Below are positions 1 through 25,324 of a stretch of DNA of 64,000 nt, piece by piece. The position numbers and the translations under genes were made by a program. The notes beneath the pieces are model-generated. The model did no database searches. It was not told the origin of the DNA and was given only the letters and a program-made list of their open reading frames with translations. This DNA comes from a plasmid: sequence record AP029160.1, one strand, 5' to 3'. The stretch's first letter is position 1, and each line of letters begins with the position of its first letter.

Positions 1-279
1 CTGAGATCTTATCAATAGTCATGAATAAATTCAGTGGAACAAGAAATCTTTCATTAATATCTGCCCCTTGGGCTGAGAATGCAGCTATTTTTAAATTTTC
101 ATTTAGAAACCAGTTTCCCTTAGCCTTATCAGCATCCGCTTGGGAATTAAAACTATTTCCTTTAATTATATTCATAGTAGGCCACGTTAATTCTGAATCC
201 AAAAAAATAGGGCTTATAATTATGAATGGCGCATTTGATACATCACAGCTATGAGAAACCACCATGCTATATGAGTGAT

Positions 280-609
280 TTAAAGTCTGCGTTGTGATTC
301 CAGAACATTGAAACTTAACACATCCCCTTGGAACAAGTTCAAACCATTTTTAGGCGCAACTACCTTTGAAAAAGTTGTTACTGGATTGAGAACAGTACCC
401 CTTTTAAAAATCTCCCCAAATGGAGCTTGAGCTGGGACACCTCTTGTATCAGGATTTTCCGTTTTCCCATACATATCAGCAAGCATTGTCGCTGTATGAT
501 AAGACGAACTCGTTTTTTGTCCCATAATCATTAAAGGAAAAGAAGCTCCAGCTTTATCCAATTCATCTGTATAGTCTTTTAAACTCTTCAATTTATTCAT
601 ATTGAACAA
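280..609 (-). CDS. hypothetical protein (109 aa)
   Basis: ORF track. Abuts the upstream ORF 612..890 with a 2-nt gap, suggesting an operon. No recognisable motif. Confidence 0.35.
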   Translation of the reverse strand: MFNMNKLKSLKDYTDELDKAGASFPLMIMGQKTSSSYHTATMLADMYGKTENPDTRGVPAQAPFGEIFKRGTVLNPVTTFSKVVAPKNGLNLFQGDVLSFNVLESQRRL

Positions 610-611
610 TC

Positions 612-890
612 CTAATTTTCTTTTTTAATTAAAGTTTGATTAGGAAAATAATCGGCTATAGCTGCATCAACGTTAGCTTGCCATCCATGCTCTAAGGGAA
701 ACATGGTGATATAGCCGATAAGTGACATAGAACTAGTATCCTCATCATCTCCTTCCATAGGCACTCTTGCATCATGAAGTAGGCTTTTAACTTGTTTTGG
801 TTGTAATTTACCTTGATATTTCTTAGAGATATATCCTAAAACTTGATCTAACCGACGGAGTCTTTCCCCTTTCGGAGGCATTTCATTCAA
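612..890 (-). CDS. hypothetical protein (92 aa)
   Basis: ORF track. Co-oriented and adjacent to 280..609. No recognisable motif. Confidence 0.35.
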   Translation of the reverse strand: MNEMPPKGERLRRLDQVLGYISKKYQGKLQPKQVKSLLHDARVPMEGDDEDTSSMSLIGYITMFPLEHGWQANVDAAIADYFPNQTLIKKEN

Positions 891-1101
891 AGGTCTTTTT
901 TCCCATTCTAATATTGTCCTTTCAGAAACTAAAAATATTATTTTCCATTATGATTACATATTTTTTAAAAATTAGGAGCGACCCACCTCATACAAGAGAT
1001 ATGCTTATCTTAAGGAACAAACTAAAGTCGCATCGAGATTTTATGACAATAATATTTTTTAAAATCAATATTTTAAACGAGTAAATTTAAGACAAAAATC
1101 A

Positions 1102-1860
1102 TTATTTATGCAAATCCTTTATTTCTTTAAAAATGTCATTCTCTAAATCATCGAAAACAATCGGATGTGCAAAAGCGTTTAACATTAGGTCAAATATTTC
1201 AACAAGATTTTCCTTTAGTTTTTCGGGGTTGACTTCATTTATATAAGTCATTGGACTTGAAGGAGTACCAGTATAGCTAATTTTGGGATAATAACATTCA
1301 TGAATAGCTAAACGCATATCTTTCACAGAATAAATTAATCTATAATTCCAACAGGATTTTAAGTTCGAGTAATAATCTCTTTTTTTATCTAAAGATAATT
1401 CCTCAAAATTACTTAAAAATATTTCTTTTTCATAAGCGATTTGTTTTTTCTTATTAGTATCAAATACAAGAAATCCTTTTGAATCTTCATTTATCAGAAT
1501 TTCTTTTATTAATAAAAATAAATTAAAACTTCCTTTTTTCATATATATTTTTGCATGTTCTAATGTTGTGTAATTAAAAACCCGATTTTTATATTTTTGA
1601 ATTTCAGATATAGGAAGACCTACTGGTGTAAATGAATGTTTGTGCCACTCTACTAACTCATCTTTTGTGGGAAGAGAGCCATCTTCAAAACAAATGACGC
1701 TGTCTATACCACAATAAGGACATAAAGCGGTTTCATTATTATCAACATATTCTTTTATTTCAGAAGTTTCAAATGTCTCCAAGCAATAAAAACAGGAACA
1801 CTTCTTAACTTTTTCAAGTATTTTTCGATTCTTAAAAGAAAGTTGTCCTTGCAATGACAT
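1102..1860 (-). CDS. hypothetical protein with N-terminal zinc-ribbon (CxxC...CxxC)
   Basis: ORF track. N-terminus has CSCFYC...CPYCG, two CxxC pairs. The rest has no recognisable domain. Confidence 0.45.
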   Translation of the reverse strand: MSLQGQLSFKNRKILEKVKKCSCFYCLETFETSEIKEYVDNNETALCPYCGIDSVICFEDGSLPTKDELVEWHKHSFTPVGLPISEIQKYKNRVFNYTTLEHAKIYMKKGSFNLFLLIKEILINEDSKGFLVFDTNKKKQIAYEKEIFLSNFEELSLDKKRDYYSNLKSCWNYRLIYSVKDMRLAIHECYYPKISYTGTPSSPMTYINEVNPEKLKENLVEIFDLMLNAFAHPIVFDDLENDIFKEIKDLHK

Positions 1861-1960
1861 TTTTTTATACTCACTTATTTACTAATTAATCATTATTTAA
1901 TCAAATAATACTTGAATAAGTTCTATTTTTATCAACATATACCGCAAAATAGTAGATCAA

Positions 1961-2137
1961 TTACTCATCTACTTGATTAGAATTAGTAATAACTGCTAAT
2001 TCTTCTTCATGAACCGGAACAACCCTTGCACATGGGACACCATTTTTAGTTATAACAAAACTAAAATTTGCCAGGCATGCTTTTTCAACCATTTCTTCTA
2101 AATTTTCCATAGCATCTTCAAAAGTTACACTGAACAT
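1961..2137 (-). CDS. Phd/YefM-family antitoxin-like small protein (58 aa, possibly C-terminally truncated)
   Basis: Own translation (below the ORF-track size cutoff): MFSVTFEDAMENLEEMVEKACLANFSFVITKNGVPCARVVPVHEEELAVITNSNQVDE. AGGAG RBS 8 nt upstream. The ITKNGxPxAxVVP pattern matches the Phd/YefM fold. Confidence 0.4.
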   Translation of the reverse strand: MFSVTFEDAMENLEEMVEKACLANFSFVITKNGVPCARVVPVHEEELAVITNSNQVDE

Positions 2138-2189
2138 TAATAATACTCCTTATTTTTAGAAGTTAAATCAAATTAACTTCTTGTTCAAT

Positions 2190-2248
2190 GGGGTTCTGGG
2201 CGCTTTGAAGGGTGAGTAGATGGACCCCTTCAAAGCGCTCGGAACCCC
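2190..2248. promoter_or_regulatory. GC-rich near-perfect palindrome (23-bp arms, 12-nt loop)
   Basis: ggggttctgggcgctttgaaggg / ccccttcaaagcgctcggaacccc, with 2 mismatches. Lies between the Phd-like gene start and the first CRISPR repeat. Confidence 0.5.
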
Positions 2249-2254
2249 AGTATG

Positions 2255-4269
2255 GCTGAGACTTGCAGTGAATAAACGCTTTGATATGCTTTCTTCAACA
2301 AGTGATTTTACTAGTTCATTGCTGAGACTTGCAGTGAATAAACGCTTTGATATGCTTTTAGGGTCAAAAGTGGAGGAGCTAGGTCTGCTGAGACTTGCAG
2401 TGAATAAACGCTTTGATATGCTAAAACCTTGCAAAGCAAATGCAAAGGACATGCTGAGACTTGCAGTGAATAAACGCTTTGATATGCTAAAATTCGTTAC
2501 ATCAGCTCCAGCAGGAAAGCTGAGACTTGCAGTGAATAAACGCTTTGATATGCTATTTCAGTTGATTTCCAATATGGTTTTGTTGCTGAGACTTGCAGTG
2601 AATAAACGCTTTGATATGCTAGATACACTACCACCAATTGTATTGAGCGAGCTGAGACTTGCAGTGAATAAACGCTTTGATATGCTTGTTAGGAATTTAA
2701 ATACTTCACCTTTAATGCTGAGACTTGCAGTGAATAAACGCTTTGATATGCTATAATTTCAGGAATTAAATCCCCTTTTATTGCTGAGACTTGCAGTGAA
2801 TAAACGCTTTGATATGCTCAGAAGGCGATTTACCGGAGGGCGTTTCTAGCTGAGACTTGCAGTGAATAAACGCTTTGATATGCTAGATTGTACCGCTTGC
2901 AGGTAGCTTAATTTGCTGAGACTTGCAGTGAATAAACGCTTTGATATGCTATCTGTCGGATTCGTGTCCGACACTTTGTTGCTGAGACTTGCAGTGAATA
3001 AACGCTTTGATATGCTTTAATAGATATAGATAAAGTTACTTTATGGGCTGAGACTTGCAGTGAATAAACGCTTTGATATGCTAATACTTTTGAAATGGAA
3101 CCTCATATTTTAGCTGAGACTTGCAGTGAATAAACGCTTTGATATGCTTGATTATTTAAATTTAGATAATATAAATTAGCTGAGACTTGCAGTGAATAAA
3201 CGCTTTGATATGCTCGCATCGGATGATATAAAATCACCATCTGCGCTGAGACTTGCAGTGAATAAACGCTTTGATATGCTAAATTTTTTGAGTTTTTGTG
3301 GCCTACTATCGCTGAGACTTGCAGTGAATAAACGCTTTGATATGCTATATAGGCACGATTTCGAAAGAGCGGGATTGCTGAGACTTGCAGTGAATAAACG
3401 CTTTGATATGCTTCGTTGGACGCAAACATGGAATAGCAATTGGCTGAGACTTGCAGTGAATAAACGCTTTGATATGCTAATAGGATGTACTTATATATTC
3501 AGACATATGCTGAGACTTGCAGTGAATAAACGCTTTGATATGCTATTATTTATAGGAAATAGGACAACGTGTCCGCTGAGACTTGCAGTGAATAAACGCT
3601 TTGATATGCTTTTTTTCTTTTTTAATAAAGACAATTATGTGCTGAGACTTGCAGTGAATAAACGCTTTGATATGCTAAAGCTTCTTTAAAACATTTCTTA
3701 AAAGTGGCTGAGACTTGCAGTGAATAAACGCTTTGATATGCTTTCTAATTTTGTTGGCAAAAATGATTTGATGCTGAGACTTGCAGTGAATAAACGCTTT
3801 GATATGCTGCCACGTTATGATCGCCTGCACCAAGAGAGCTGAGACTTGCAGTAAATAAACGCTTTGATATGCTTAAAATTTTTAATTCAGTTCATAGTAT
3901 TCTGCTGAGACTTGCAGTGAATAAACGCTTTGATATGCTCAAACGTACCGTTAGAATTTATTGCTATTTGCTGAGACTTGCAGTGAATAAACGCTTTGAT
4001 ATGCTAAAACCAGCTTCTTTCAGACAAGAAAGAACGCTGAGACTTGCAGTGAATAAACGCTTTGATATGCTAGTGAGAGGCTAGGATCATTTTCCGCGAC
4101 AGCTGAGACTTGCAGTGAATAAACGCTTTGATATGCTTTCTTTACTGGATTCTACAAATTCGAATTCGCTGAGACTTGCAGTGAATAAACGCTTTGATAT
4201 GCTTAGAAATCATAAAATATTAAACATGATAATGCTGAGACTTGCAGTGAATAAACGCTTTGATATGCT
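2255..4269 (+). CRISPR. CRISPR array, 31 repeats of 36 nt (GCTGAGACTTGCAGTGAATAAACGCTTTGATATGCT), ~30 spacers of 29-31 nt
   Basis: Exact 66-bp periodicity. One variant repeat (G->A at ~3853). Adjacent to cas2. The repeat 3' part is complementary to the tracrRNA anti-repeat. Confidence 0.97.
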
Positions 4270-4274
4270 AGATC

Positions 4275-4310
4275 CTAATATAATTTCATAATTATATTAG
4301 GGTTTTTTGT
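4275..4310 (+). terminator. rho-independent terminator at the cas2-proximal end of the array
   Basis: Perfect 12-bp stem cctaatataatt/aattatattagg, followed by gttttttgtgatttt on the + strand. Confidence 0.5.
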
Positions 4311-4320
4311 GATTTTAGGC

Positions 4321-4674
4321 TCAAAAAAGTAGAATTTGAGGGAGTGGTTTTTCAATATTACCCTCGTTTTTTCCAAAAAAGACTTTTCGTTTTCCAAATT
4401 GTTTATCAGTAACCAATAATAATCTTACTTGTCCAGAAGGTGGAATTCTTTCTTGAATCATATTTTGTAAGCTTATGCTAGCTTCTTCACTTGAAAAATA
4501 GATAGCATAGACTGAAAATTGAAGCATTGTGAATCCTTTAGAAATCAGAAACTTTCTAAATTTAGTATATTCTTTCCGATCTATTTTTGTCACAACTGGT
4601 AAATCAAATAATGCAAATAGCCACACTGCGCTGTATGCTCCTGGTCCATTTATATTTTTATTATTTATTTTCAA
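4321..4674 (-). CDS. cas2: CRISPR-associated endoribonuclease Cas2
   Basis: 117 aa. Position after cas1. Cas2-like core LQFSVYAIY. Confidence 0.85.
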   Translation of the reverse strand: MKINNKNINGPGAYSAVWLFALFDLPVVTKIDRKEYTKFRKFLISKGFTMLQFSVYAIYFSSEEASISLQNMIQERIPPSGQVRLLLVTDKQFGKRKVFFGKNEGNIEKPLPQILLF

Positions 4675-4706
4675 ATAAACTCTTCTTTATAAAAATTTTC
4701 TAATTT

Positions 4707-5597
4707 CTATTTAAGAAGATTCGGTAAAATAATTTTAGGTTCTTGGGAAAGAAATGCATTAGAGAGACTTTGTGCTGATAGGGTAATTATATCCTGAAGC
4801 GGTCGTTCTTCCTTGTTGAAATTAAATTTTTTATACATAATTTCAATTAAACGTTTTTTGATTGATGTGTCTAAATTGAATGGACTCTGTAATTCTTCTG
4901 AAATTAAAAAAACTTCATTGTCAATAATTGGACGAAAAGGTTCCATAACATCATCCGCTAAGCAAAATGCATTGTACTTGCTTTTATGAAATATTCCTAT
5001 GGAAGGATTTAAGCCTGTAGCGCATAATGATCTTGCAACGACGGCCCTTAAAATAGCATACCCATAATTTAAAAATTTATTTTCGTCTTCAGCAGAAATA
5101 TCCCTTTTGAATTCTTTCATAGGATGTATATTTTTCCAATATATTCTGGCAGCCTGTGCTTCTAAATTTCCTTCGTCTCCACTTTTAACTTCTTTGCACA
5201 TTTTTAAAAGTCCAAAATGAGCACCTTTTTTTCTTAATAAAAGAGAGCCTTGAACTTCAATTTTTCGTGCAATAACCTTTTTCCAAAGTTGTTTTTTAAA
5301 TGGAATTGAAGAGAGAATCTGTTTTGCAAAACGCTGTGTTTGCGAAGAATGAGCATCAAGTGGTAAAAGCATTCCTATGGGCATGTGCCTTTCATCGCTA
5401 CAAACAAATATACTTCCATTTTCAGATAATTTTGAAAGTACTGCATGCGTGTATGTTACTGCTGGTGAAGAAACAATGAGAGCAGCAATATCAGAAAAAG
5501 GTAAGGTAACTCTATTTTCTCCTTCAATGACAAGGAGGTCATTGAAGGAGGAAAGACGCACTTTCTGAGTAGAAATATCAATAATTTTTTTTGTCAT
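4707..5597 (-). CDS. cas1: CRISPR-associated integrase Cas1 (type II)
   Basis: 296 aa. The start overlaps the cas9 stop (ATGA). Type II Cas1-like sequence. Confidence 0.9.
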   Translation of the reverse strand: MTKKIIDISTQKVRLSSFNDLLVIEGENRVTLPFSDIAALIVSSPAVTYTHAVLSKLSENGSIFVCSDERHMPIGMLLPLDAHSSQTQRFAKQILSSIPFKKQLWKKVIARKIEVQGSLLLRKKGAHFGLLKMCKEVKSGDEGNLEAQAARIYWKNIHPMKEFKRDISAEDENKFLNYGYAILRAVVARSLCATGLNPSIGIFHKSKYNAFCLADDVMEPFRPIIDNEVFLISEELQSPFNLDTSIKKRLIEIMYKKFNFNKEERPLQDIITLSAQSLSNAFLSQEPKIILPNLLK

Positions 5598-8500
5598 TCA
5601 TGACTTTCAAAAAGATCACCCAATGGGGAAACAATAATTTTTTTACATTTTAGAGCATATAATGAATTTGGTGAGACATTAGGAAAATCAGATGTCTTAA
5701 TTCTGTCACATTGAGGCCGAGCATCATGGGAAGGTGAATGGTAAATGCGGGAATCACTTGTAATAGATTTTACACTCCTTAATTTTACCTCTCCATTCTT
5801 ATCTGTTATTTCTATTATGTCTCCCTTCATTAGAGAGAATTTAAAATACCCCCCTTTTTCTTTTAGAGCATCTTTATCAATAACAGGACGATTATTCTTT
5901 TTTCTAGTCATCGCTTCTAGGCGTGAAACAACTATAGCTTCCCAGGTAACTTTTTTTCCTTTTGTAATTTCATAGTAAGCTATATGATGATTCTCATCTG
6001 CTTGAACATTTCTTTCTTGCAATCCCTTTCCAATTTGTAAAGGTGATGCTGTTCGTGCTTTTACACGCACCGACTTAATATATATTTTTTCTCCCTTTTG
6101 TTTTGCAAAAGGTCTTTTAAACTGTTCGTTATGTTTTACAATAAGGAAGGGAAGTGTTTTTTCATCGTCCAATTTGAAAGCTTTTTTTGGAATCTTAGTT
6201 CCAATTTCAGCTAATTTTCTCATAACACAATCTTTAATATTGGGATCAATTATATTTCCTAATTCTCTGTCAGTTAGTGAATCCAAAGGTTTTCGAATTG
6301 GGATATAATTTTCACCTAATTTGTCTTTGTTACTTTTACCATAGAATGTTTCCTTATGTAATGAACCATTAATTTTTCTGTCTACTCTAAAGGATATTTG
6401 AATTTTTGATACATGCTCTTGAGCTTGTTCTAATAAATTCTCCCAAATTTTATCTAATTTTCCAAATTTGCTTTTAGATTCCTTTTCCGCATTTTTTGCT
6501 GCTCGATTGAGTAAGTTTATAGATTTTTCAGATGTTAAAGCAATTACAAGTGCATCTACTGCATGATGTCTGTGGTCATTTCTTGATTTTATATTTTCTT
6601 TTGAAAGTATTGAATTTAATTTCCACATATTTCGTAAATAGGCAGTTATTTGACCAGTGCTTGCTCTTACTCGGAGATAATTGTTCCCATCAACTTCTCC
6701 TCCATAAAGAAGTCCTAGATAATTTTTTGCAAGTTTTGTTGCATAACGGGTATCATTTAACATTTGGCTAGCAAAATCTTGTTCACTTGTTGCATCTTTT
6801 TGCTTAAAAAGTTGTATTTTTTTATATTTCCCATTTCCTTTGAATTTTTCAACCCTTTTTAATATTTCTGAGTATTTTTCTGGACTGCCAATCCCATAAG
6901 CTTCATACGGGGTTTGGTTTTTTTTAACATTTCTATTTTCAAAATAATGGCAAAGAGTTTTATTTAAAAAAGAATCATCAAGACTTCTACTCAAAGGTAC
7001 AATATGTTCCACATCAAATTGAGGATTTTTCCCAAAGAGATCTTCCATGCTTATTATCTTTCCTGTATAGGGGCATTGATAATTGCATTCAACATATAAT
7101 AGATATTTTTCAATATCAGACTTACTTATTTTAAGGCTTGGTGAGTATTCTAATATTTTATTTTCTGCTTCTACTCTTTCGCTAGCACGACTTTTATTAG
7201 CCTTTAAAATATTTTCTCTAAACTCTTTTCCTTTTTTGAGTTCACGCGCAAGTTCTATTCGTATCTGTTTAGGTTTTCCGTACTTCTTGATTATGCTGTT
7301 TACAATTTTTCGAAGCTCAGACAAAGTTCTTGAAACTATCGGATTGCGTAAAGAAGGATCGACTTTACCATAAGATGGTAATAAATTAAAAATGTTTTTA
7401 TCGTTTTCATCTTTATAACCTGCATTTATTTTTGCTTCATAAAGATCCTTTCCTTCTCTTAAAAATGGAAGGATTTTTTCAACTGCGGTACTACTATATG
7501 CGAGGTAGCCTTCTTCTAAATTTATTTGAGAAAGTTTAGATGCTGTTTCTGAGTCTAATTTCCATTTTTCTTTAAAATGCTTTTCTAGTGCAATTTGTGA
7601 ATCAAAACTAATTAAAGCATTTACAATTTTTTCTTGATCAATTTTACTATGAGAGAAGAATCCACTGTAAACACTGAAAATTTTGCTAGAAGTGGTATCT
7701 CCTTTCACTTCATTTTCATCATATTTGAATTTTTCATCTTTTTCCAAGTTTAATATTTTTTTTAAGTAAGAAACTTTTATTTTATCTTTCTTTAAAAATT
7801 CATTGAAAATAATCTCTCTCTCATAAGGGGTCAATGATCTTTCTGTAGTAGTTGAAAAGCTATTTATAATCCGAAAATTATTTATCGTTTGTTTTGCTCT
7901 AAATTCTTGTGCATTTAAAAATGCAATTTTCATTCTTCTTTTGTCTTTTTCAAGTTTACAAAATCCAATAAATTTTTTAACAGATTTAAGAGGCCTTTGG
8001 TGAAAAATAGATTTATATATATTTTTTTTAACTTCGTTGTTTTCAAAAAAATGATTATTGCCTAATGAAATTTGTGAGCTTATAATTTTTTCATATTCTT
8101 CTTCATACATTTTTCGAGAAGTATATTTTTTTCTAATTCTAATTTTATCAGGTTCAAAAGTTGAAAAAAGTTCTCCTAAAGTTCTAAATTCACTTTCTTC
8201 CATGTTCTCATATAACTTTTTAATCCCTCCTAAAACATTGCCAGTTTCAGCACTTTTACCAGATTTCCTATTACTTAAAAATCCTCTTCTTTGGCCTAAA
8301 TGAAACAATGCCCTACCTATTTCAAAAGGCTCTAATTTTTCATCTAATGCAATTTTACGCAAAAAATAAGGAAACACATTTGGAAGAGTTTTTTTATAAA
8401 TTTTATATAAATGTGGTTTGTGAGGGAGTACGAGACTCCATTTTTTTAATAAATCTATATCTAAATCTCTAATTATTTCTTGTCGAACTTCAAGCATTCT

Positions 8501-8857
8501 GCGTCTTATTTCTTTTTTTTTGGCTTGATTTGATATATTTTCTTCAAATGGGGAATTTATTTTTCCTAGTTGTGATTTAGAGAAGTTTGGGAGCAGAGAT
8601 GATTCTTGTAAAATTTTAAATAATTTGTTCATGCGCATCATACGACGATCTCGTGCTCTACGTGTTAAACGTGCTTCTCTTCTTTGAGCATTTTTAGAAC
8701 TTTCTGTGCCGAATTGATCTCTATTTACACCCTCATCAAAAATACGTACCCCCATTTTTTCAATATTTTGTTTTTCTTCATTGATTAGGCTCCAACCAAT
8801 ACTAGATGTTCCAAGATCTAAGCCCAAGATTAATTCATTAGTAGTTAAAGAACTCAT
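5594..8857 (-). CDS. cas9: Cas9 (type II-C size class, 1087 aa)
   Basis: RuvC-I motif LGLDLGTSSIGWSL at the N-terminus, HNH motif DVEHIVPLSRSLDDSFLNKTL, RuvC-III HHAVDALVIALT. No csn2 or cas4 in the locus. Confidence 0.93.
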   Translation of the reverse strand: MSSLTTNELILGLDLGTSSIGWSLINEEKQNIEKMGVRIFDEGVNRDQFGTESSKNAQRREARLTRRARDRRMMRMNKLFKILQESSLLPNFSKSQLGKINSPFEENISNQAKKKEIRRRMLEVRQEIIRDLDIDLLKKWSLVLPHKPHLYKIYKKTLPNVFPYFLRKIALDEKLEPFEIGRALFHLGQRRGFLSNRKSGKSAETGNVLGGIKKLYENMEESEFRTLGELFSTFEPDKIRIRKKYTSRKMYEEEYEKIISSQISLGNNHFFENNEVKKNIYKSIFHQRPLKSVKKFIGFCKLEKDKRRMKIAFLNAQEFRAKQTINNFRIINSFSTTTERSLTPYEREIIFNEFLKKDKIKVSYLKKILNLEKDEKFKYDENEVKGDTTSSKIFSVYSGFFSHSKIDQEKIVNALISFDSQIALEKHFKEKWKLDSETASKLSQINLEEGYLAYSSTAVEKILPFLREGKDLYEAKINAGYKDENDKNIFNLLPSYGKVDPSLRNPIVSRTLSELRKIVNSIIKKYGKPKQIRIELARELKKGKEFRENILKANKSRASERVEAENKILEYSPSLKISKSDIEKYLLYVECNYQCPYTGKIISMEDLFGKNPQFDVEHIVPLSRSLDDSFLNKTLCHYFENRNVKKNQTPYEAYGIGSPEKYSEILKRVEKFKGNGKYKKIQLFKQKDATSEQDFASQMLNDTRYATKLAKNYLGLLYGGEVDGNNYLRVRASTGQITAYLRNMWKLNSILSKENIKSRNDHRHHAVDALVIALTSEKSINLLNRAAKNAEKESKSKFGKLDKIWENLLEQAQEHVSKIQISFRVDRKINGSLHKETFYGKSNKDKLGENYIPIRKPLDSLTDRELGNIIDPNIKDCVMRKLAEIGTKIPKKAFKLDDEKTLPFLIVKHNEQFKRPFAKQKGEKIYIKSVRVKARTASPLQIGKGLQERNVQADENHHIAYYEITKGKKVTWEAIVVSRLEAMTRKKNNRPVIDKDALKEKGGYFKFSLMKGDIIEITDKNGEVKLRSVKSITSDSRIYHSPSHDARPQCDRIKTSDFPNVSPNSLYALKCKKIIVSPLGDLFESHE

Positions 8858-8926
8858 TTTTAGTACTCATAATAAAAGGATAAGAAAAAATTGACTTTTC
8901 TAATAAAACAAATTATTTAAATTTGT

Positions 8927-9024
8927 AAAGCATATCAAAGCGGTTATTCCATTGCTTGCTTTAGCAAGGGTTTATGCCCGCAGCCTTAAAAAGCTAGAGG
9001 GGCTTTCGTGGCTCCTCTTTTTTT
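8927..9024 (+). ncRNA. tracrRNA: predicted tracrRNA
   Basis: The first 14 nt of AGCATATCAAAGCGGTTATTCC (8929..) equal the reverse complement of the repeat 3' end, 20/22 overall, and an imperfect match continues further. Then an AAGG...CCTT nexus-like segment, then a terminator hairpin GAGGGGC-tttcgtg-GCTCCTC plus T7. A TTGACT -35 lies at 8891-8896. Confidence 0.75.
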
Positions 9025-9375
9025 GTTCTGTTGCAAAGATTTCAAAGTAACAAAGAACCTTGGAATTGATTTTCAAAACGACTATTCCAGACGCAATTAT
9101 CCAGCGAGGGAGCTAAATTGCTCCCAAATAGGCAAATGACTTTTAAATTTGAATTGCCCTTTTCTGAGCATATGATGGAGTTCAATACCTGTTAAAGTAG
9201 CTTTCGCCAATTTCAATGAGAAGAAACCAAACATAAGCTTCACTTTCTTTTTTATAAATCGATGGTCTTGTTCTACAAGATTATTTAGAGATTTATTTTG
9301 TCTTATTAAGATCTTATCTTCAGATTTAAGATCTTTGTTGATAACATTTAAAACTGCAAATACAAAAAATAAGTG
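9025..9375 (-). mobile_element. 3' remnant of a divergent IS6-family element
   Basis: GTTCTGTTGCAAA inverted repeat at 9025 and a transposase C-terminal coding remnant (...IWEQF.SLAG). It differs from the main IS6 copies in the subterminal region. Confidence 0.65.
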
Positions 9376-9428
9376 AATTTAAATATTTTTTTATCATTAA
9401 TTTTTCATTTCGATTAAGATTCATAAGC

Positions 9429-10331
9429 TTATTTTACCGCACCACTATCAATCAATGAGTGTTCTTTATGAGCATTTAACATTTGTTCATCATCAATTTT
9501 TCTTTCTCTTGATTCTAAATTTTTATAAATATAATCATCTCCATTTGTCTTTTCAGTAAGATGAAAATGTTTTAGTTTTAGCTCTATGTTTTCACGTTTA
9601 AGGGCTTCTTCTTTTTTAATTGACTCTAATTTCTCTAATAAAACAGCTTTATCAATTTCAAGCTTTTGAATGCTAAGAGCATTTAGTTCTGCTTTTTTAA
9701 GCCTTTCTTCAAGTTCCATAATTTTTTTCTTAGCTTCAAATTCCCTCTCTTCATAAGCACTATTCAATTTATTTTTATCCTCAAGTTGCTTCTTTAAGAT
9801 TGCAAGATCGCTTAAAAGCTGATTCATTTTTGCTTCTTGATTTTCAATAATATCTCTTAAAGATAAAATTTCTTTTTCTTTTGCTTCAAGCTCAAATCTT
9901 TGCTTCTCTTTATTTTGCAATACAAGATCAGTAAATTTTGCTTCTAATTCTTGATTTTTGCGTTCAAATTCCTCTTGTAGTTTTCCTTCTAATCCCTTTT
10001 TATATTCTTCAAATTCCCCCCTCTCTCTATTGAGTTCTTGCAATTCTTTTTTAGCTTGTTCCTGCATTTCAAATGCAATCAAGAGTTGCGAGCGATTAAG
10101 CTGGTTCAATCGGTTTGTGAGAATATCCACTTCTGCCAATGCTTTTTTTTGCTCGCTTTCTTCAGGTAGTGTTTGCATTTTAAAGGCTTCAACAGCGGCT
10201 TTAAAATATTGTTGCGGTTTCATTCCAGAGCGGTTGATTTCATTTTGAAAAAATTCACGCTCCTCAATAGAACTACAACGAAATTGGATTCTTGGATCAA
10301 TTTTTGAGGTGTTTACTTCTTCTATTGTCAT
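9429..10331 (-). CDS. coiled-coil protein with MobC-like RHH N-terminus
   Basis: N-terminus RIQFRCSSIEEREFFQNEINRSGMKPQQYFKAAV resembles the MobC ribbon-helix-helix. The remainder is heptad-rich E/K coiled coil. Confidence 0.35.
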   Translation of the reverse strand: MTIEEVNTSKIDPRIQFRCSSIEEREFFQNEINRSGMKPQQYFKAAVEAFKMQTLPEESEQKKALAEVDILTNRLNQLNRSQLLIAFEMQEQAKKELQELNRERGEFEEYKKGLEGKLQEEFERKNQELEAKFTDLVLQNKEKQRFELEAKEKEILSLRDIIENQEAKMNQLLSDLAILKKQLEDKNKLNSAYEEREFEAKKKIMELEERLKKAELNALSIQKLEIDKAVLLEKLESIKKEEALKRENIELKLKHFHLTEKTNGDDYIYKNLESRERKIDDEQMLNAHKEHSLIDSGAVK

Positions 10332-10522
10332 TTAAATTTCCCTTTTCGATTGAATTATTTTTTTAAAGATAAATTCATTATTCCTATACTTATCAATACC
10401 TTCTATTTTAGCGAATTCAGTGTTTTTATTTATTGTGATTTGATTTTTTGGAATTTGGTCTGGAGCATCTCCCATGATTGTAGCTTCAGGAACATTATTT
10501 TTTTTATGTATAAAAGCACTTC

Positions 10523-10987
10523 TTAATTCATAATTTTTAAAAAAAAATCGACTCTAATACAATTATCAGAAATAATTTCATAAAAATGAAAACCACTTTT
10601 TATTTTAACATTATTAATTTTAATATCTTTTTCAAGAGCAACTATATTTTGATTTTTAAAAAAATTTAATTTTTGAATTTTATCACTTTTTTCAGGATTG
10701 AATATAGTATCCTGAACAGCATCAAAATTCATTATAAAGAGCGATTTTTGATCTTTTCCATGCTCTTTATTTTTTGAATATTCTTTAAAAAATGTATTTA
10801 ATCTTTTATCTAGTTTTTGTTTTATATAATATTTTTTTATTGTTGGACAAGCGAGAAATATAAGAGTACCAACGGTTCCTATTGCAGCAACCCATGTTCC
10901 TATTGCGGTTATAAAATACCATGCGGTATCCCAAGTCCATTTTGAATCAATAATATGTTTAAATTGACAAAAAATATAATCAAACAT
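10523..10987 (-). CDS. membrane protein (start trimmed to internal Met to avoid overlap with the integrase)
   Basis: Predicted TM segment WYFITAIGTWVAAIGTVGTLIFLA. Lies downstream of the integrase. Confidence 0.3.
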   Translation of the reverse strand: MFDYIFCQFKHIIDSKWTWDTAWYFITAIGTWVAAIGTVGTLIFLACPTIKKYYIKQKLDKRLNTFFKEYSKNKEHGKDQKSLFIMNFDAVQDTIFNPEKSDKIQKLNFFKNQNIVALEKDIKINNVKIKSGFHFYEIISDNCIRVDFFLKIMN

Positions 10988-12014
10988 TTTTATCTCCTCT
11001 TTCTTTTTGATATTTAACTTTTCTTGCTGCACTTTCTTTTTCTTCATCGGTTTTCCGGATGTACATCATGGTGGTCATCATACTTTTATGACCAAGGAGA
11101 TCTTGAATTTCAGACAAGGGAACCCCATTCCTGTGAAGATGACTTGCAACAGTGGCACGGCAGGAGTGCGGGCTAATTTCTTTTGTAATTCCATGCTCAC
11201 GCGCAATACTTGTCACCATGCGCGCAAGGTAATCCCGATTGATTGGTTTTTTTGAGAACGGTGTAAGAGCAAAGAGAAAATCCTCTTTTTTAGCAAGAGG
11301 TCTTAAAGTAACAATGTAGCTTTTAAGGAGTGCGGCTAATTCATCACTTATTAAGGGAGCATGAATTTCTCCGCCTTTGATTTTCAAATGCAGCCTAGGG
11401 TATTTTCCTGTCAGGTCCAGATCTTTAATTTTGAGGGAACACAATTCTGTTGCTCTCATCCCTACGTGTGAGAGCGTGCTAAAAACGATGAAGCGAAGCC
11501 ATGCCCGATAATCCTCTTTTACTTTAAGAGGGTTTGTTGCTTTCTTATAGGACTCTTCGAGCGACTCTAAAATGCGAGCAATCTCTGCTTCTGATAATGC
11601 CTCTGTTTTCCCTTTAGATTTCTGTACTTTAGGCAAGCGTATGGCAGCCCCAGCATTTCTATCCACCCATCCTTCTTGAAACGAAAATTTAAGGAAGGAC
11701 AAAAGCGGAGAAAGCTTTGCGCACACCGAAGACGGCGGGTATGTGGCCAAAAGATAGCGTTTGTACGCATCCACATGATCTCGTTGAATTTCAGCGAGGC
11801 TTGCAAACGCAACCCCTTTTTCTAAACAAAATGCAAAAAAATCCCTTAAATGACGGGCATAATTTTGTCGTGTGTTATCACTTACATAACTGCCTAAAAA
11901 TCGAGCTTGTTTTAAGGCGATTTCAGGGGGGGATTTTTCAAAGTTGGTACTAGGAGACCCCCCAATTGAAGTTGAAGGTTGCTCTATGGATTGGCAATAT
12001 TGAGTTTCAGGCAT
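10980..12014 (-). CDS. tyrosine site-specific recombinase/integrase
   Basis: C-terminal catalytic signature HSCRATVASHL...LLGHKSMMTTMMYI (R..HxxR..Y). Confidence 0.85.
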   Translation of the reverse strand: MPETQYCQSIEQPSTSIGGSPSTNFEKSPPEIALKQARFLGSYVSDNTRQNYARHLRDFFAFCLEKGVAFASLAEIQRDHVDAYKRYLLATYPPSSVCAKLSPLLSFLKFSFQEGWVDRNAGAAIRLPKVQKSKGKTEALSEAEIARILESLEESYKKATNPLKVKEDYRAWLRFIVFSTLSHVGMRATELCSLKIKDLDLTGKYPRLHLKIKGGEIHAPLISDELAALLKSYIVTLRPLAKKEDFLFALTPFSKKPINRDYLARMVTSIAREHGITKEISPHSCRATVASHLHRNGVPLSEIQDLLGHKSMMTTMMYIRKTDEEKESAARKVKYQKERGDKNV

Positions 12015-18542: not shown

Positions 18543-21500
18543 TCACAGTTTATTTTTTACATGCTTTGATATTTTGTCCAAGTTTAATTTTCCTTCTTTT
18601 TTAGTGAACTCGAAGCGACCAAATAAATTGATGTGCTGCCAAGCTACAGGAGACATGGATTTTATTATATCTTCATTCCATTTTCCGTGTGCCATTAAAT
18701 TTGAAAATATAGATTCATTATAATAAATAATACAAAGCGTAATAAAACGAGCACAAGCATCCCAGACTTGCTGTTCTTCTTCTGTTTTAAATTTTAATTT
18801 ACCAAAATTTGCATACCCAACCGCTCGCTTTAATTGATGATAGCTTTCAACTCTGTTTAAAGCTTTTTGTACACCTTGTCTGAGTTCTGACGAATCTAAA
18901 TAGTCAAGCAAATAGATGCTTTTTAGAATACGATTATATTCCCATAAAGCATTTTTTGTTTTACTTTTATGAGTATGCGAGCTTATCTTTGCTGTTATTA
19001 TGCTCTGTGTAGTTTTTTTTATGCCAAGAGAATCATAATTTTTTGAATATTTTCCCATTCTTCAATTATAATTCTTGTATTAAATCTCTTTTTTGGTCTT
19101 AAATTTAAATGACTATAATCGCTTATATTTTTAAAAGACCCTATGGAATCAGTAAAAACATCATAAAAATCTTTATATCGGGGAGCGAATTGGTACCCAA
19201 ATGTATACAAAATTGCAAAATTTACATCATTAGTTCCATGTGTATCTGTTGAAAAAACTTCAGGATGAACGTCGCTTTTATTGCTAGATATTATATCATA
19301 AACATGATGGCTTTCATGATCATTTGCGCTAATTATTTTTGAATTAGTAGGAAGGATATTACCAACCATTGAATATGAAACAATACCTTTTTTTCGACCA
19401 AAATATTTAGGTGAATGTCTTGCATTAATAGTTGATACTTTTACCTCAAACTTTTGACCATCTCCAGCAAAATGAGCTAGCGAATTAATATGATACTTAG
19501 AAAAAATTGGTGATTTATAAATTTCGTTTGTGATTTTATCACAAGCATCTTTCACTGTTTCTAAGCGAATAAAGTTTTTTAAAGATGAGTATAAATTATT
19601 GTAAGAAAGATCTGAAACATCAGAAATTTTTTTAATACCCATATTAGTAGCTATAGCAATAATACAAGCAGTTATTGATTTTATATCTGCTTCTTCCTTT
19701 GTAAATCGACATAAAATATGCTCGAAACAGTCCATAATATTTGCGTTTTTTATGGCAAAATATATAACATCAATAAGATCTATTTGCTCCAATGACTCAA
19801 ATAAGTATTGGTTTACATCCTCAGATGATGAAGGAGTTTTTACATTCCATCTTGATTTTTTTAATGTTTTATTTTGTTCAAAATATATATTTTCACCTTT
19901 TTCAATTTTATTGTTTACCGTTATTAATTTTTTTTCGTATATTTCTTTTAGTTCATTTAGATGCTTTTCTGGTTTTTTATTGAAATTCTTTAGACCTAAT
20001 TCATGTATAAAATTATCTTTATTTTCCCATTCTTTATTTGTAACTAATTCACTTGCTAGGCTTTTATATTTTACACTATCCGAACAGTAAATAGAACCTG
20101 ATTCTAAATTTTCACAAATAAGCATATAGATCAAATATTCACATCGATCATAGCTGACTTTATTGTCATTAATTATATATTTTAAAAATTTTTTCGGTAT
20201 AAAATTTTCCTTAAATTCAAATATATTATTTTTATCTAAGTTCTTTTTTGATATGTGATTTTTTAATATATTCAACGCTTCTATCAATTTTGAGTTTTTA
20301 GATAAAAATTCAAAATCTATATTCATAATAATTGGTCTTAAATTTTTTTTAATTTTTTGATTTATTATTTCTATATATTCCCATTCAAATTCACTTTTAT
20401 CAAAACTTGCTTTATTTTCAATATAATCAGCAACAACTGCTAAAAGATTTTCCCTCAATAACGTAAAGGCTCTACCTTTTGTTTTTAAAAAAGTTTCGCT
20501 TTCAGGTATTTTTTTATCTAAAAATATTTTTAATATTTTACCTGCTTTAGGTACGTATTCATTCCCTTCTATCTTGTATTCTAGTATCTTTTCATCTGCA
20601 TAAAGCTTATATTCCGCTTCAAATAAATTTAAATTATACTTTAAAGCATTAATCATGTTATCATTATATTTATGAAATCTATGAAATAAAAAACAAATTA
20701 TATATAATCTTACAATTTTTATATCTCGAATATTTAATCTATATACAGAGTAAAATTCAACTAAAGAAGCATAATATTTTATACTTTCATTTGAAATCAT
20801 AAGTCTTGGAATTAAATTTTTTATTTTTATATAAAATTTTCTTATTTTACTACCTCTTATTATTTCTTCTTTTATTTCACCATATTTGAAATCTTTTGGG
20901 CTATGTTTTAGTGATGTAATTTCATATGTTTTATCTTGTTTTAGTTGTATTAATTTATTTAACTCATTTGAAAATCCAATATCTATATTTTCTTCAATAA
21001 TATTTATCAATCTTGATTCTTCTGAAAGCAATATTTTGCTTATAAAATCTTGCATGTATGAATATCTTGGAATAATAATTTTATTTTCATCCAAGAAATT
21101 AAAAAGTTCTCGAAAAATGTATTTTTGTTTTGCACTTATTTTAACTAGATTTAGTGCCTTTTCCTCTAATATTTCTAAATCTTTTTTATCAAAGTATTTA
21201 TACTTGAAAATATCTAATATTGTTTTTTTATTTTCAGTTGATGTTATTTTACTTACATCTTGTATTTTTTTTATACTTAAAATACTATTCTTAAAATGTT
21301 TCTCAACAATAAATTTAATATCTTCTTCAACTTCATTTAATTTAAAAGAAAAAAATCTATATTTAAATTTGAAATATCCCAATTGTAAAATAAAATTAAT
21401 TTTTGAATTTAAAATTCTGAGTTTATTTAAAGCAATATTTTCCTTGTGTGATAAATCAAAATAGATTTCTCTTTCTTCATCTGAAAATAGTGGTCTTTCA

Positions 21501-21595
21501 TAAATTAATTTAATTTCATCAGGTTTAAGAATAGTGAGTCGATTTGAATGGTGCTCACTTTCTTCTTTGTATTCATCATCAATTTCCAAAAGCAA
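18543..21595 (-). pseudogene. tnpA: Tn3-family transposase TnpA, split by a frameshift (858 aa + 171 aa ORFs overlapping at 19019-19058)
   Basis: The C-terminal ORF carries the Tn3 DDE C-terminal signature (RVESYHQLKRAV...INLFGRFEF). The two ORFs are contiguous, total ~1030 aa. Confidence 0.7.
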
Positions 21596-22658: not shown

Positions 22659-23478
22659 GGTTCTGTTGCAAAAAATATATAAGTGAGAGTGGAGTAACTT
22701 TTTTTTGGAGTTGTTTGAGGGGAGTGGCGATGGATTTCAAGTGGAAGCATACTGATCGTATGATTATCATAATGGCAATCCGTTGGTATGTAGGCTACTC
22801 CCTAAGTTATAGGCAAGTAGAAGAACTTTTAGCAGAGCGTGGTATTTTTGTAGATCACACGACCATTCATCGTTGGATTGTGGAATACAGTCCAAAATTA
22901 CTTAAGAAGTTTTATAAGCTTAGAAAGCGTATCTGTGGAAGTTGGCGAATGGATGAGACTTACATCAAAGTAAAAGGTGAATGGTGTTATCTCTATAGAG
23001 CCGTGGATAAGCATGGTCAAACGATTGATATTTACCTTTCAAAACGAAGAGATACAACAAGTGCCAAACGTTTTTTCCAAAAATGCTTTCGTTCTTCTGG
23101 AATCCCAGAAAAGGTAAATATTGATAAAAGTGGCTCTAATACGGCAGCATTAAAGGCTATCAACAAAGATCTTAAATCTGAAGATAAAGTTCTAATAAGA
23201 CAAAATAAATATTTAAATAACCTTGTAGAGCAAGACCATCGATTTATAAAAAAGAAAGTAAAGCCTATGCTTGGTTTCTTCTCATTGAAATCGGCGAGAG
23301 CTACTTTAGCAGGTATTGAACTCCATCATATGCTCAGAAAAGGGCAATTCAAATTTAAAAGTCATTTGCCTATTTGGGAGCAATTTTGCTCCCTCGCTGG
23401 ATAATTGCACCTACAGAGGACATTCTTGAAAAGTAACAACCCAATGTTTCGTGGCTTCTAATTATTTGCAACAGAACC
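22659..23478 (+). mobile_element. IS6-family (IS26-like) insertion sequence, copy A, 820 bp
   Basis: 14-bp inverted repeat GGTTCTGTTGCAAA at both ends. 8-bp left flank ACTCTGCA. Confidence 0.9.
22730..23404 (+). CDS. IS6-family DDE transposase
   Basis: MDFKWKHTDRMIIIMAIRWY...DETYIKVKGEW.YLYRAVD. Resembles the IS26 Tnp. Confidence 0.85.
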   Translation: MDFKWKHTDRMIIIMAIRWYVGYSLSYRQVEELLAERGIFVDHTTIHRWIVEYSPKLLKKFYKLRKRICGSWRMDETYIKVKGEWCYLYRAVDKHGQTIDIYLSKRRDTTSAKRFFQKCFRSSGIPEKVNIDKSGSNTAALKAINKDLKSEDKVLIRQNKYLNNLVEQDHRFIKKKVKPMLGFFSLKSARATLAGIELHHMLRKGQFKFKSHLPIWEQFCSLAG

Positions 23479-23660: not shown

Positions 23661-24428
23661 ATGTCTAAAAGGATAATCTTATTTACTTTTCTTTCTTTTA
23701 TCGTTTTTAGCTGCTCAAAAGGTGAAGGTGGAAGCATTGATAAAAATTCGTCAGATGCAACGGCTAATAACGATCTTTGTAAAATTCATTCAACAGCAAT
23801 AAATTCTAACGAAAAAATATCATATCAATACAATGCAATTAATTCACAATGGGAACTACTTCCAAGCTATCAAATTACACCTGATACAACACAAGTAAGT
23901 GGCACACCAATTCAATTAAGTCCAAACTCTCCAGAAATGATTATTAGTGGAAATGTTGGGCAAATTCCAAATGTCAACAATTTTATATCTTATACTTTAA
24001 GTAATAGTAATTTTGTTTATTTAACTAAATTACCTTCAATACCAACTGATAAAAGTATCGTTCAAGTAAATACAAACTCTAATTACATAGCAACAATAGA
24101 TTCAACATTATTTGGTGGTAATTTAGCTGACCTTAAAGGAAATGCTGGTAATTTATTTATCCATCATAGTGTAATAACTTCTCCACTCTATTTCATATAT
24201 GATCAAGCTTCACAGTCTTGGAGCCTTGTAAATAGTGTTTTAAATTTAATGGCAGGAAGTATTGCTCAATTGAATGGGCAATTACCAAGTGGAAACTTTA
24301 GTGCAATTAATTTTAGTTTATCTGCATATAGCTTTGTAACACCAGTGTATTTACCTAAAAATCCAATTGATAAAATGAAAATTAATATAATTAATAATAC
24401 GAATCAAAATGCGAATATTTGTTACTAA
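23661..24428 (+). CDS. lipoprotein (255 aa)
   Basis: Lipobox FSC after the signal peptide. Ser/Asn/Thr-rich. Confidence 0.55.
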   Translation: MSKRIILFTFLSFIVFSCSKGEGGSIDKNSSDATANNDLCKIHSTAINSNEKISYQYNAINSQWELLPSYQITPDTTQVSGTPIQLSPNSPEMIISGNVGQIPNVNNFISYTLSNSNFVYLTKLPSIPTDKSIVQVNTNSNYIATIDSTLFGGNLADLKGNAGNLFIHHSVITSPLYFIYDQASQSWSLVNSVLNLMAGSIAQLNGQLPSGNFSAINFSLSAYSFVTPVYLPKNPIDKMKINIINNTNQNANICY

Positions 24429-24504: not shown

Positions 24505-25324
24505 GGTTCTGTTGCAAAAAATATATAAGTGAGAGTGGAGTAACTTTTTTTTGGAGTTGTTTGAGGGGAGTGGCGATGGATTTCAAGTGGAAGCATACTG
24601 ATCGTATGATTATCATAATGGCAATCCGTTGGTATGTAGGCTACTCCCTAAGTTATAGGCAAGTAGAAGAACTTTTAGCAGAGCGTGGTATTTTTGTAGA
24701 TCACACGACCATTCATCGTTGGATTGTGGAATACAGTCCAAAATTACTTAAGAAGTTTTATAAGCTTAGAAAGCGTATTTGTGGAAGTTGGCGAATGGAT
24801 GAGACTTACATCAAAGTAAAAGGTGAATGGTGTTATCTCTATAGAGCCGTGGATAAGCATGGTCAAACGATTGATATTTATCTATCAAAACGAAGAGATA
24901 CAACGAATGCCAAACGTTTTTTCCAAAAATGCTTTCGTACTTCTGGAATCCCAGAAAAGGTAAATATTGATAAAAGTGGCTCTAATACGGCAGCATTAAA
25001 GGCTATCAACAAAGATCTTAAATCTGAAGATAAGATCTTAATAAGACAAAATAAATATTTAAATAACCTTGTGGAACAAGACCATCGATTTATAAAAAAG
25101 AAAGTGAAGCCTATGCTTGGTTTCTTCTCATTGAAATCGGCGAGAGCTACTTTAGCAGGTATTGAACTCCATCATATGCTCAGAAAAGGGCAATTCAAAT
25201 TTAAAAGTCATTTGCCTATTTGGGAGCAATTTTGCTCCCTCGCTGGATAATTGCACCTACAGAGGACATTCTTGAAAAGTAACAACCCAATGTTTCGTGG
25301 CTTCTAATTATTTGCAACAGAACC
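24505..25324 (+). mobile_element. IS6-family IS, copy B, 820 bp
   Basis: Same inverted repeats as copy A. Confidence 0.9.
24576..25250 (+). CDS. IS6-family DDE transposase
   Basis: Identical family to 22730..23404. Confidence 0.85.
   Translation: MDFKWKHTDRMIIIMAIRWYVGYSLSYRQVEELLAERGIFVDHTTIHRWIVEYSPKLLKKFYKLRKRICGSWRMDETYIKVKGEWCYLYRAVDKHGQTIDIYLSKRRDTTNAKRFFQKCFRTSGIPEKVNIDKSGSNTAALKAINKDLKSEDKILIRQNKYLNNLVEQDHRFIKKKVKPMLGFFSLKSARATLAGIELHHMLRKGQFKFKSHLPIWEQFCSLAG

Follow-up and report, generated by a model that had tools for sequence, protein, structure and literature searches.

Organization of the CRISPR-Cas9 locus

The window analysed here, a stretch of 64,000 nucleotides (nt) of plasmid DNA (sequence record AP029160.1), carries a CRISPR-Cas9 locus and, beside it on the + strand, a short element at about 8927-9024 that, judged from the DNA sequence, is very probably the gene for the trans-activating CRISPR RNA (tracrRNA) of this type II-C system, the small RNA that Cas9 depends on for the use of its guide RNAs. 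Three cas genes lie contiguously on the - strand, cas9 (5594-8857; 1087 amino acids (aa), with the Pfam domains RuvC_III, HNH_4 and Cas9_a), cas1 (4707-5597; Pfam Cas_Cas1, E 1.5e-24) and cas2 (4321-4674; Pfam CRISPR_Cas2, E 9.4e-14). Among solved structures, the Cas9 protein best matches chains with a length of 1082-1095 aa (E about 1e-69) that the tool labels only as 'Cas9'; those of 1082-1092 aa are presumably NmeCas9, the enzyme of Neisseria meningitidis. Directly beyond cas2 lies the CRISPR array (2255-4269), consisting of 31 repeats of 36 nt (GCTGAGACTTGCAGTGAATAAACGCTTTGATATGCT in the + strand reading) and 30 spacers, each of 30 nt except for one of 29 nt. Since the locus contains no further cas gene besides cas9-cas1-cas2, neither csn2 nor cas4, it belongs to type II-C by composition. 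The GC content of 30.5% indicates an AT-rich host.

The element is divergent from the cas9-cas1-cas2 operon, with its anti-repeat situated 70 nt upstream of cas9. On the + strand, its predicted parts are a candidate -35 box TTGACT (8891-8896), a candidate -10 box TATTTA (8914-8919) located 17 nt beyond it, a predicted start at about 8926-8928, the 37-nt anti-repeat AGCATATCAAAGCGGTTATTCCATTGCTTGCTTTAGC (8929-8965), which pairs with the whole 36-nt repeat in the + strand reading, the AA junction (8966-8967), the nexus hairpin GGGU-UUAU-GCCC (GGGTTTATGCCC; 8968-8979), a weak middle hairpin or linker AGC-CUUAAAAA-GCU (8982-8995) and an intrinsic terminator (8996-9024). The middle hairpin appears in the minimum-energy fold and not in the centroid, and is assigned with low confidence. 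For the terminator, the scanner called a stem of 9 pairs (8996-9018) with TTTTTT behind it; its arms are GAGGGGC (8997-9003) and GCTCCTC (9011-9017), and the T7 tract (U7 in the RNA) occupies 9018-9024. On recheck, every sequence statement of the original prediction, which had been made for this region from the letters alone, proved to be exact in positions, motifs and mismatch counts.

Pairing of the element with the repeat

The anti-repeat begins with 14 nt identical to the reverse-complemented 3' end of the repeat, and over its first 22 nt there are 2 mismatches to that sequence, as originally described in both respects. The array contains this 14-mer 31 times, and the rest of the 64-kb window contains it once, at 8929, while shuffled sequences gave 0.47 matches even when 2 mismatches were allowed. 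A blastn-short search with the repeat against the array-masked window gave one significant match (8929-8949, E 8.5e-5), the remaining matches being 10 nt or shorter, except for one of 13 nt with one mismatch (E 5). When both strands were scanned in 45-nt windows for hybrid formation with the repeat, the best hybrid was located at 8923-8970 on the + strand (-41.8 kcal/mol), against a background mean of -10.6 (standard deviation 3.6) and -30.0 kcal/mol for the runner-up elsewhere. The match between repeat and anti-repeat is thus far beyond chance. No better anti-repeat was found within the 64-kb window, where 8929-8965 is the sole repeat-complementary stretch outside the array.

The claim that the anti-repeat is imperfect and of full length was borne out by cofolding of the CRISPR RNA (crRNA) with the tracrRNA, in which the whole repeat is paired at -39.8 kcal/mol, equal to the median of type II-C repeat:anti-repeat hybrids (-39.4 kcal/mol; PMC6546382). 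At the spacer-side end, the hybrid starts with a lower stem of 6 base pairs (bp), GCUGAG:UUUAGC, including three G-U pairs, and continues through a bulged region; the remainder is composed of 5+5 bp flanking a single bulged base, a 2x2 internal loop and a perfect upper stem of 14 bp.

Conservation and co-variation in related loci

A tracrRNA-like gene was detected upstream of cas9, on the opposite strand, in all nine related loci fetched (L001-L004, L006 and L007-L010), of which the Cas9 proteins are from 95% down to 37% identical to that of the window. The closest Cas9 proteins are metagenomic (L006, 95%; L001 from activated sludge, 89%; L002, 81%), followed by those of Pigmentibacter sp. JX0631 (L003, 61%), L004 (44%) and a large clade at 35-42%; those of L007-L010 are 37-40% identical. 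In the genome contig collection, neither the Cas9 peptides nor the 22-nt tracrRNA pattern found a match, and in the plasmid collection the locus found none, the only matches there being to the IS6 transposase and to cas1 fragments. The tracrRNA gene is separated from cas9 by 10-190 nt, except in L003 (746 nt). The identity of the tracrRNA sequences to that of the window is 98, 97, 91, 87, 68 and about 57%, and the flanks are unalignable. Between the window and the relative with the 95% identical Cas9, similarity ends right after the T-tract, which fixes the 3' end of the gene.

Beyond the anti-repeat, all share the same order: AA, a hairpin of 3-5 bp starting with G, a variable middle hairpin, and a GC-rich hairpin with a U-tract. 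The AA junction is invariant in ten of ten loci, the window included. The hairpin at the middle site differs in size among the relatives, being GCAT-AGA-ATGC in L004 and longer in L007-L010. As an independent check, a covariance model was built solely from the relatives furthest from the window, L007-L010, leaving out L004, of which the nexus was misaligned by MAFFT. Its sole match in the window was 8929-9024 on the + strand, over the full length (18.7 bits, E about 0.002, a rough value), and it also found the tracrRNAs of L001, L002, L003 and L006. This match and the nine related loci uphold the gene as originally proposed, on the + strand and divergent from cas9, for a tracrRNA about 95 nt long.

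The changes between loci follow the predicted pairing. Over the seven aligned rows for repeat plus tracrRNA, 95.8% of the repeat:anti-repeat hybrid cells are paired, compared with 38-46% after the partners are shifted against each other by 1-3 columns, and five of the pairs have changed on both sides; examples are position 33 of the repeat (U-A to C-G in L002 and L003) and three positions in L004. Within the tracrRNA, RNAalifold predicted from the ten sequences the nexus hairpin and the terminator, and double-sided change was seen at 13 of the 18 pairs in the prediction. In the terminator, 8 of the 9 pairs show a change of both partners in one or more of the ten loci; such compensatory changes, together with the call by the consensus scanner, agree with the intrinsic terminator as first proposed.

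The position of the nexus had to be revised. The AAGG...CCTT helix, originally suggested as nexus-like, showed no compensatory change, and 3 of its 28 sequence-by-pair cells are broken over the seven rows; it is interrupted in L002 (CCCT) and L004, and shares G residues with the GGGU/GCCC hairpin. The predicted nexus is this GGGU/GCCC hairpin at 8968-8979, following the AA junction. Its counterparts in the relatives include GAG/CUC (L004), GGAAC/GUUCC (L008), GAC/GUC (L009) and GGAUC/GAUCC (L010). Double-sided changes are present in at least one sequence at 3 of its 4 pairs, with counts of GC:8 AU:2 at one pair and GC:6 AU:2 CG:1 GU:1 at another, and 96.4% of its cells are paired in the close set. 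In type II-C tracrRNAs, an A or AA junction is followed within 1-3 nt by a nexus hairpin starting with G (PMC6546382), in agreement with the arrangement found here.

Some of the related loci differ from the window in their arrays. A second array lies beyond the tracrRNA gene in L006 (661-1795), L003 (5311-6975) and L004 (100-269), and agrees in repeat and in orientation with the array on the cas2 side; none was found in the window. In L003 and L006, degenerate or truncated repeats are located at the 5' end in the crRNA sense, as likewise noted for N. meningitidis and Campylobacter jejuni. The L004 locus (713-4975), with the 44% identical Cas9, contains a tracrRNA gene and an array directly beyond cas9, without cas1 or cas2, and its neighbours are small genes on the - strand, one of them with a faint AcrVA2-like Pfam match; this may be an adaptation-less Cas9 system carried by a mobile element. 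In L010, a type I-E system (1-4386; Cas_CT1975, Cas5, Cas1, Cas2 and arrays with a 61-nt period) is located directly upstream of the type II-C tracrRNA gene and cas9.

Strand and direction of array transcription

The hybrid of the window has an energy of -41.5 kcal/mol, compared with -32.2 kcal/mol when the opposite strands are taken as RNAs, and the same strand sense was favoured in all six loci tested, by 4-15 kcal/mol. The hairpin with U7 at 8996-9024 forms a terminator on the + strand only. In addition, the repeats of different loci carry, within the lower stem, A/G swaps opposite an unchanged U, which are compatible with pairing only in the + RNA sense. An RNA from the - strand was considered and rejected, its hybrid being weaker and the - strand having no terminator. 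As a criterion of strand, the anti-repeat is 5', the structured tail is 3' and the hybrid is more stable in that sense (PMC6546382), as was observed here.

Directly beyond the last repeat, at 4270-4308, lies a hairpin with a U6 tract (-15.4 kcal/mol, z -5.0), of which the U-run is on the + strand only; a hairpin with a U-rich tail, differing in sequence, occupies the same place in L001-L004 and L010. This would be an intrinsic terminator for + strand transcripts of the array. Because the first and last repeats are both perfect, the orientation of the array is not deducible from repeat decay. From the polarity of the tracrRNA, the hybrid energies and this predicted + strand terminator at the array end, we infer that the array is read on the + strand, toward cas2 and opposite to the cas operon; the assignment of the tracrRNA would thus fix the direction of array transcription. 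The same arrangement is known from RNA sequencing in N. meningitidis and C. jejuni (PMC3737331), although it is not universal in type II-C.

Candidate promoters of the tracrRNA gene and cas9

In all ten loci, the order TTGAC(A/T), 17 nt, TAnnn(A/T), 6-11 nt and anti-repeat was observed, the conserved -35 motif (TTGACT or TTGACA) being equidistant from the anti-repeat. The -10 candidates in the six AT-rich loci (window, L001-L004 and L006) are TATTTA, TATTAA, TATTCA, TAGTTA, TATCTA and TACATA; the final A of these TAnnnA boxes is unusual for sigma-70. Those of the distant relatives, with the same 17-nt spacing, are TATATT, TATACT, TAGACT and TATAAT. The consensus scanner did not call a promoter in the window, because position 6 of TATTTA is A instead of T, and a -10 box ending in A is common to the six closest loci. 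Of the promoter originally placed for a start at about 8927, the -35 motif and the spacing stand by their conservation, while the -10 box remains atypical; the conserved -35 and -10 boxes in all ten loci point to a candidate start at most a few nt away from 8927. We rejected the idea of a long-form tracrRNA, or of a natural single-guide RNA (sgRNA), as in Streptococcus pyogenes, since inspection by eye showed no repeat-like segment in the 70-nt gap that separates the anti-repeat from cas9.

The original layout also placed the cas9 and tracrRNA promoters back to back, for which some relatives would have no room. In L007, the distance from the tracrRNA -35 box to the start codon of cas9 is 10 nt, and the box overlaps the cas9 ribosome-binding site, so that the cas9 promoter there cannot lie between the two genes and has to be within or beyond the tracrRNA gene. 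The - strand complement of the anti-repeat, from 8937 to 8929, contains the -10-like box of the repeat, TGATATGCT, pointing at cas9; it is retained because the anti-repeat is nearly a copy, in inverted orientation, of the 3' end of the repeat. Every repeat of the array ends at its 3' side in TGATATGCT, which fits the extended -10 pattern TGnTAnnnT, and the relatives carry TGATACGCT, TGATATGAT and GGTATACT in its place. The N. meningitidis repeat likewise ends in a -10-like box, TGCTACAAT, of which TGATATGCT is the counterpart in the window. Boxes of this kind within the repeats of N. meningitidis and C. jejuni initiate the crRNAs in the spacer that follows, and RNase III is dispensable there (PMC5965381, PMC12477760). 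The repeats of the window may act likewise; since the bases of the box are also part of the upper stem, their conservation does not prove promoter function. By analogy, cas9 might be transcribed from the repeat-derived promoter TGATATGCT embedded in the tracrRNA gene, a suggestion that we regard as possible but rather unlikely. If it were true, the embedded cas9 start and the tracrRNA start would be about 5 nt apart, and RNA polymerase would have to choose between them, coupling the levels of both products.

Proposed mode of action

Taken together, the predicted gene would be expressed and used as follows. An RNA of about 95 nt would start a few nt before 8929 from the sigma-70-type promoter TTGACT, 17 nt, TATTTA, and end at the terminator hairpin with U7. 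Its 5' 37 nt would pair with the 36-nt repeat in crRNAs for which the + strand of the array is read, forming a hybrid with the 6-bp lower stem beside the spacer, the bulged region and an upper stem ending in 14 perfect pairs, while the AA junction, the GGGU/GCCC nexus and the 3' hairpin or hairpins would constitute the scaffold bound by Cas9. By analogy with N. meningitidis, the crRNA 5' ends may be generated from the -10-like box TGATATGCT at each repeat 3' end. The duplex may be trimmed by RNase III, and the Cas9:crRNA:tracrRNA complex would cut matching DNA beside a protospacer-adjacent motif.

Evaluation of alternative explanations

Several points weigh against the assignment of the element as a tracrRNA gene. 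The comparative set is small, with ten loci, six of them closely related, and the anti-repeat can be reset by the repeat via recombination (PMC6546382), so that co-variation is not fully independent evidence. The search for anti-repeats covered 64 kb of the genome. The promoter was missed by the consensus scanner, as described above, and the abutting end of an IS6-family element at 9025 may exert context effects on termination. Rfam returned no tracrRNA match, either at E up to 1 in 1-12000 or at the gathering score over the whole window, the only hits being spurious microRNA matches on the hairpin at 2184-2254 and a group II intron; this null result is expected, since tracrRNA sequences are too diverse for similarity searches beyond close relatives (PMC3737331).

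Among the alternatives, the one that survives best, although very unlikely, takes the element as an inert relic, a degenerate, inverted and solitary repeat remaining from a lost second array upstream of cas9. Such an origin would agree with the presence of a second array beyond the tracrRNA gene in L006, L003 and L004 and its absence from the window, and with the IS6-family end at 9025, a mark of past rearrangement at this site. In those three loci, however, element and second array are found together, and the element is inverted with respect to the repeats of that array. Moreover, the 3' half of the anti-repeat (TTGCTTGCTTTAGC) is unlike the repeat and yet invariant in five loci whose repeats differ there. 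The relic explanation is rejected on account of this coexistence and of the higher conservation of the repeat-divergent 3' half than of the repeats; it is also contradicted by the promoter motifs, the AA junction, the nexus and the terminator, which are conserved in relatives with as little as 37% Cas9 identity.

Slightly less probable again is the idea that the conserved block is a promoter or 5' leader of cas9 on the - strand and not an RNA gene on the + strand. The box TGATATGCT facing cas9 in the anti-repeat complement and the lack of room for a cas9 promoter between the genes in L007 are consistent with such a role, but the hairpin with its U-tract terminates on the + strand only, the G-U pairs and the A/G swaps opposite U fit a + strand RNA only, and in L003 the element is 746 nt away from cas9. 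A promoter or leader on the - strand could, besides, accompany the tracrRNA instead of replacing it.

It is hardly credible that the element specifies a regulatory small RNA resembling scaRNA (small CRISPR-Cas-associated RNA), with the true tracrRNA encoded outside the window. CRISPR-linked small RNAs other than tracrRNA do exist in type II loci (PMC5449619; see also PMC6199352), and the search extended over 64 kb. A scaRNA is repeat-like and pairs with tracrRNA, whereas the element is antisense to the repeat over its full length; its order of 5' anti-repeat, AA junction, nexus and terminator is that of a tracrRNA, and no second anti-repeat was found in the related loci. A small protein encoded by the region is the least probable of all, since the mechanically called open reading frames (ORFs) of 32-43 aa that overlap the element start with TTG or GTG and extend into an IS6-derived flank not found in relatives, and the substitutions are paired as in an RNA structure and not codon-like. 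None of these alternatives fits the data as well as a tracrRNA gene.

IS6 flank, array details and mobile elements of the window

A terminal inverted repeat of the IS6 family (GTTCTGTTGCAAA..., GTTCTGTTGCAAAGATTT) starts at 9025, the base directly after U7, and is followed by a frame-broken, decayed transposase remnant, the two lying within 9025-9330. Since no partner repeat is nearby, this is a truncated IS6 copy. The insertion left the terminator intact, and may explain the missing second array in the window. Fifteen further matches to the inverted repeat delimit no fewer than seven elements, about 818 bp in length, in the window, including those at 22660-23477, 24506-25323, 28283-29100, 49700-50517, 53194-54011 and 55040-55857. 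Other mobile elements are sited at 10980-12014, 19019-21595, 31428-32792 and 62972-63971; the kinds present are a tyrosine integrase, a Tn3-family transposase, a 454-aa TnpB (IS605 OrfB/Cas12f-like TNB) and a group II intron, the last recognized by Rfam RF00029 together with a reverse transcriptase/maturase ORF. The 300-aa ORF adjoining the locus (9429-10331) has no Pfam match, and no housekeeping genes were seen in the window, whose gene content would suit a plasmid or a genomic island.

Within the array, one internal repeat (3838-3873; GCAGTAAAT) carries a G-to-A change, and the spacer preceding it (3809-3837) is the one of 29 nt. No full spacer match to the window was found. The best was spacer 26 (3940-3969), which agrees over 17 nt exactly, and at 21 of 30 positions overall, with 23795-23811 and 54329-54345, inside a duplicated 255-aa ORF beside IS6 copies, present twice in the window. 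This match is too partial for self-targeting, and the spacer may have originated from a related mobile element. Adjoining the first repeat, a GC-rich hairpin with 24 perfect bp (2189-2250; -47 kcal/mol, z -7.6) contains GCGCTTTGAAGGG in both arms, having CGCTTTGA in common with the repeat; it is followed by a U-tract on neither strand.

Comparison with known systems

The assignment rounds off the annotation of a type II-C system found in an AT-rich lineage that has received little study and of which the nearest named relative is Pigmentibacter (Silvanigrellaceae); no paper was found in the literature linking Pigmentibacter or Silvanigrella with Cas9. It also supplies the sgRNA parts for an uncharacterised Cas9 of 1087 aa, namely repeat orientation, anti-repeat, AA junction, nexus and terminator, from which an sgRNA can be designed as guide + GCUGAGACUUGCAGUGAAUA-GAAA-UAUUCCAUUGCUUGCUUUAGCAAGGGUUUAUGCCCGCAGCCUUAAAAAGCUAGAGGGGCUUUCGUGGCUCCUCUUUUUUU.

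The type II-C system of N. meningitidis shares with that of the window the minimal cas9-cas1-cas2 set, 36-nt repeats, 30-nt spacers and the pairing of the anti-repeat with nearly the whole repeat, and also the array opposite to the cas operon (PMC3737331), which in the window is predicted. Comparison of the NmeCas9 sgRNA (PMC9674691), ...CUACAAU-AA-GGCC...GCC-GCAACGC, with the window, ...CUUUAGC-AA-GGGU...GCCC-GCAGCC, shows in common the AA junction, a nexus stem starting with GG and then GCA(A/G)C. Otherwise, there is no useful similarity in RNA sequence. The nexus of the window is of 4 bp with a 4-nt loop, in contrast to a longer stem-loop in N. meningitidis, and the host is AT-rich, with the Cas9 of its nearest named relative, Pigmentibacter, 61% identical. 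For N. meningitidis it is proven that promoters lie within the repeats and that crRNAs are formed independently of RNase III (PMC5965381); for the window, both are only suggested by a motif.

The clade of L007-L010 (metagenomic; source names include Brocadiales and Hydrogenedentes) agrees with the window in gene position and orientation, in the spacing of the candidate promoter boxes (TTGACA, 17 nt, TAnAnT in the clade), in the AA junction, G-start nexus hairpin and terminator, in the anti-repeat start AGYATAYC..AGCG and in CCGC(A/G)G(G/C)C beyond the nexus. It differs in the RNA, which is about 57% identical, in being GC-rich, in a longer middle hairpin and in a canonical -10 box ending in T.

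The type II-A tracrRNA of S. pyogenes is also encoded upstream of cas9 on the opposite strand (PMC5965381), and has the same order of 5' anti-repeat, nexus and terminator and the same role. The S. pyogenes system, however, includes csn2, its array runs in the same direction as the cas operon and is served by a leader promoter, and only about 25 nt of the anti-repeat are complementary; two promoters give long and short forms, whereas the window has no visible second promoter or repeat-like 5' extension. With its promoter as a candidate, the element of the window shows all those features defining a type II-C tracrRNA that could be checked. It is a new but ordinary member of a kind that is well known, and leaves the knowledge of tracrRNAs unchanged.

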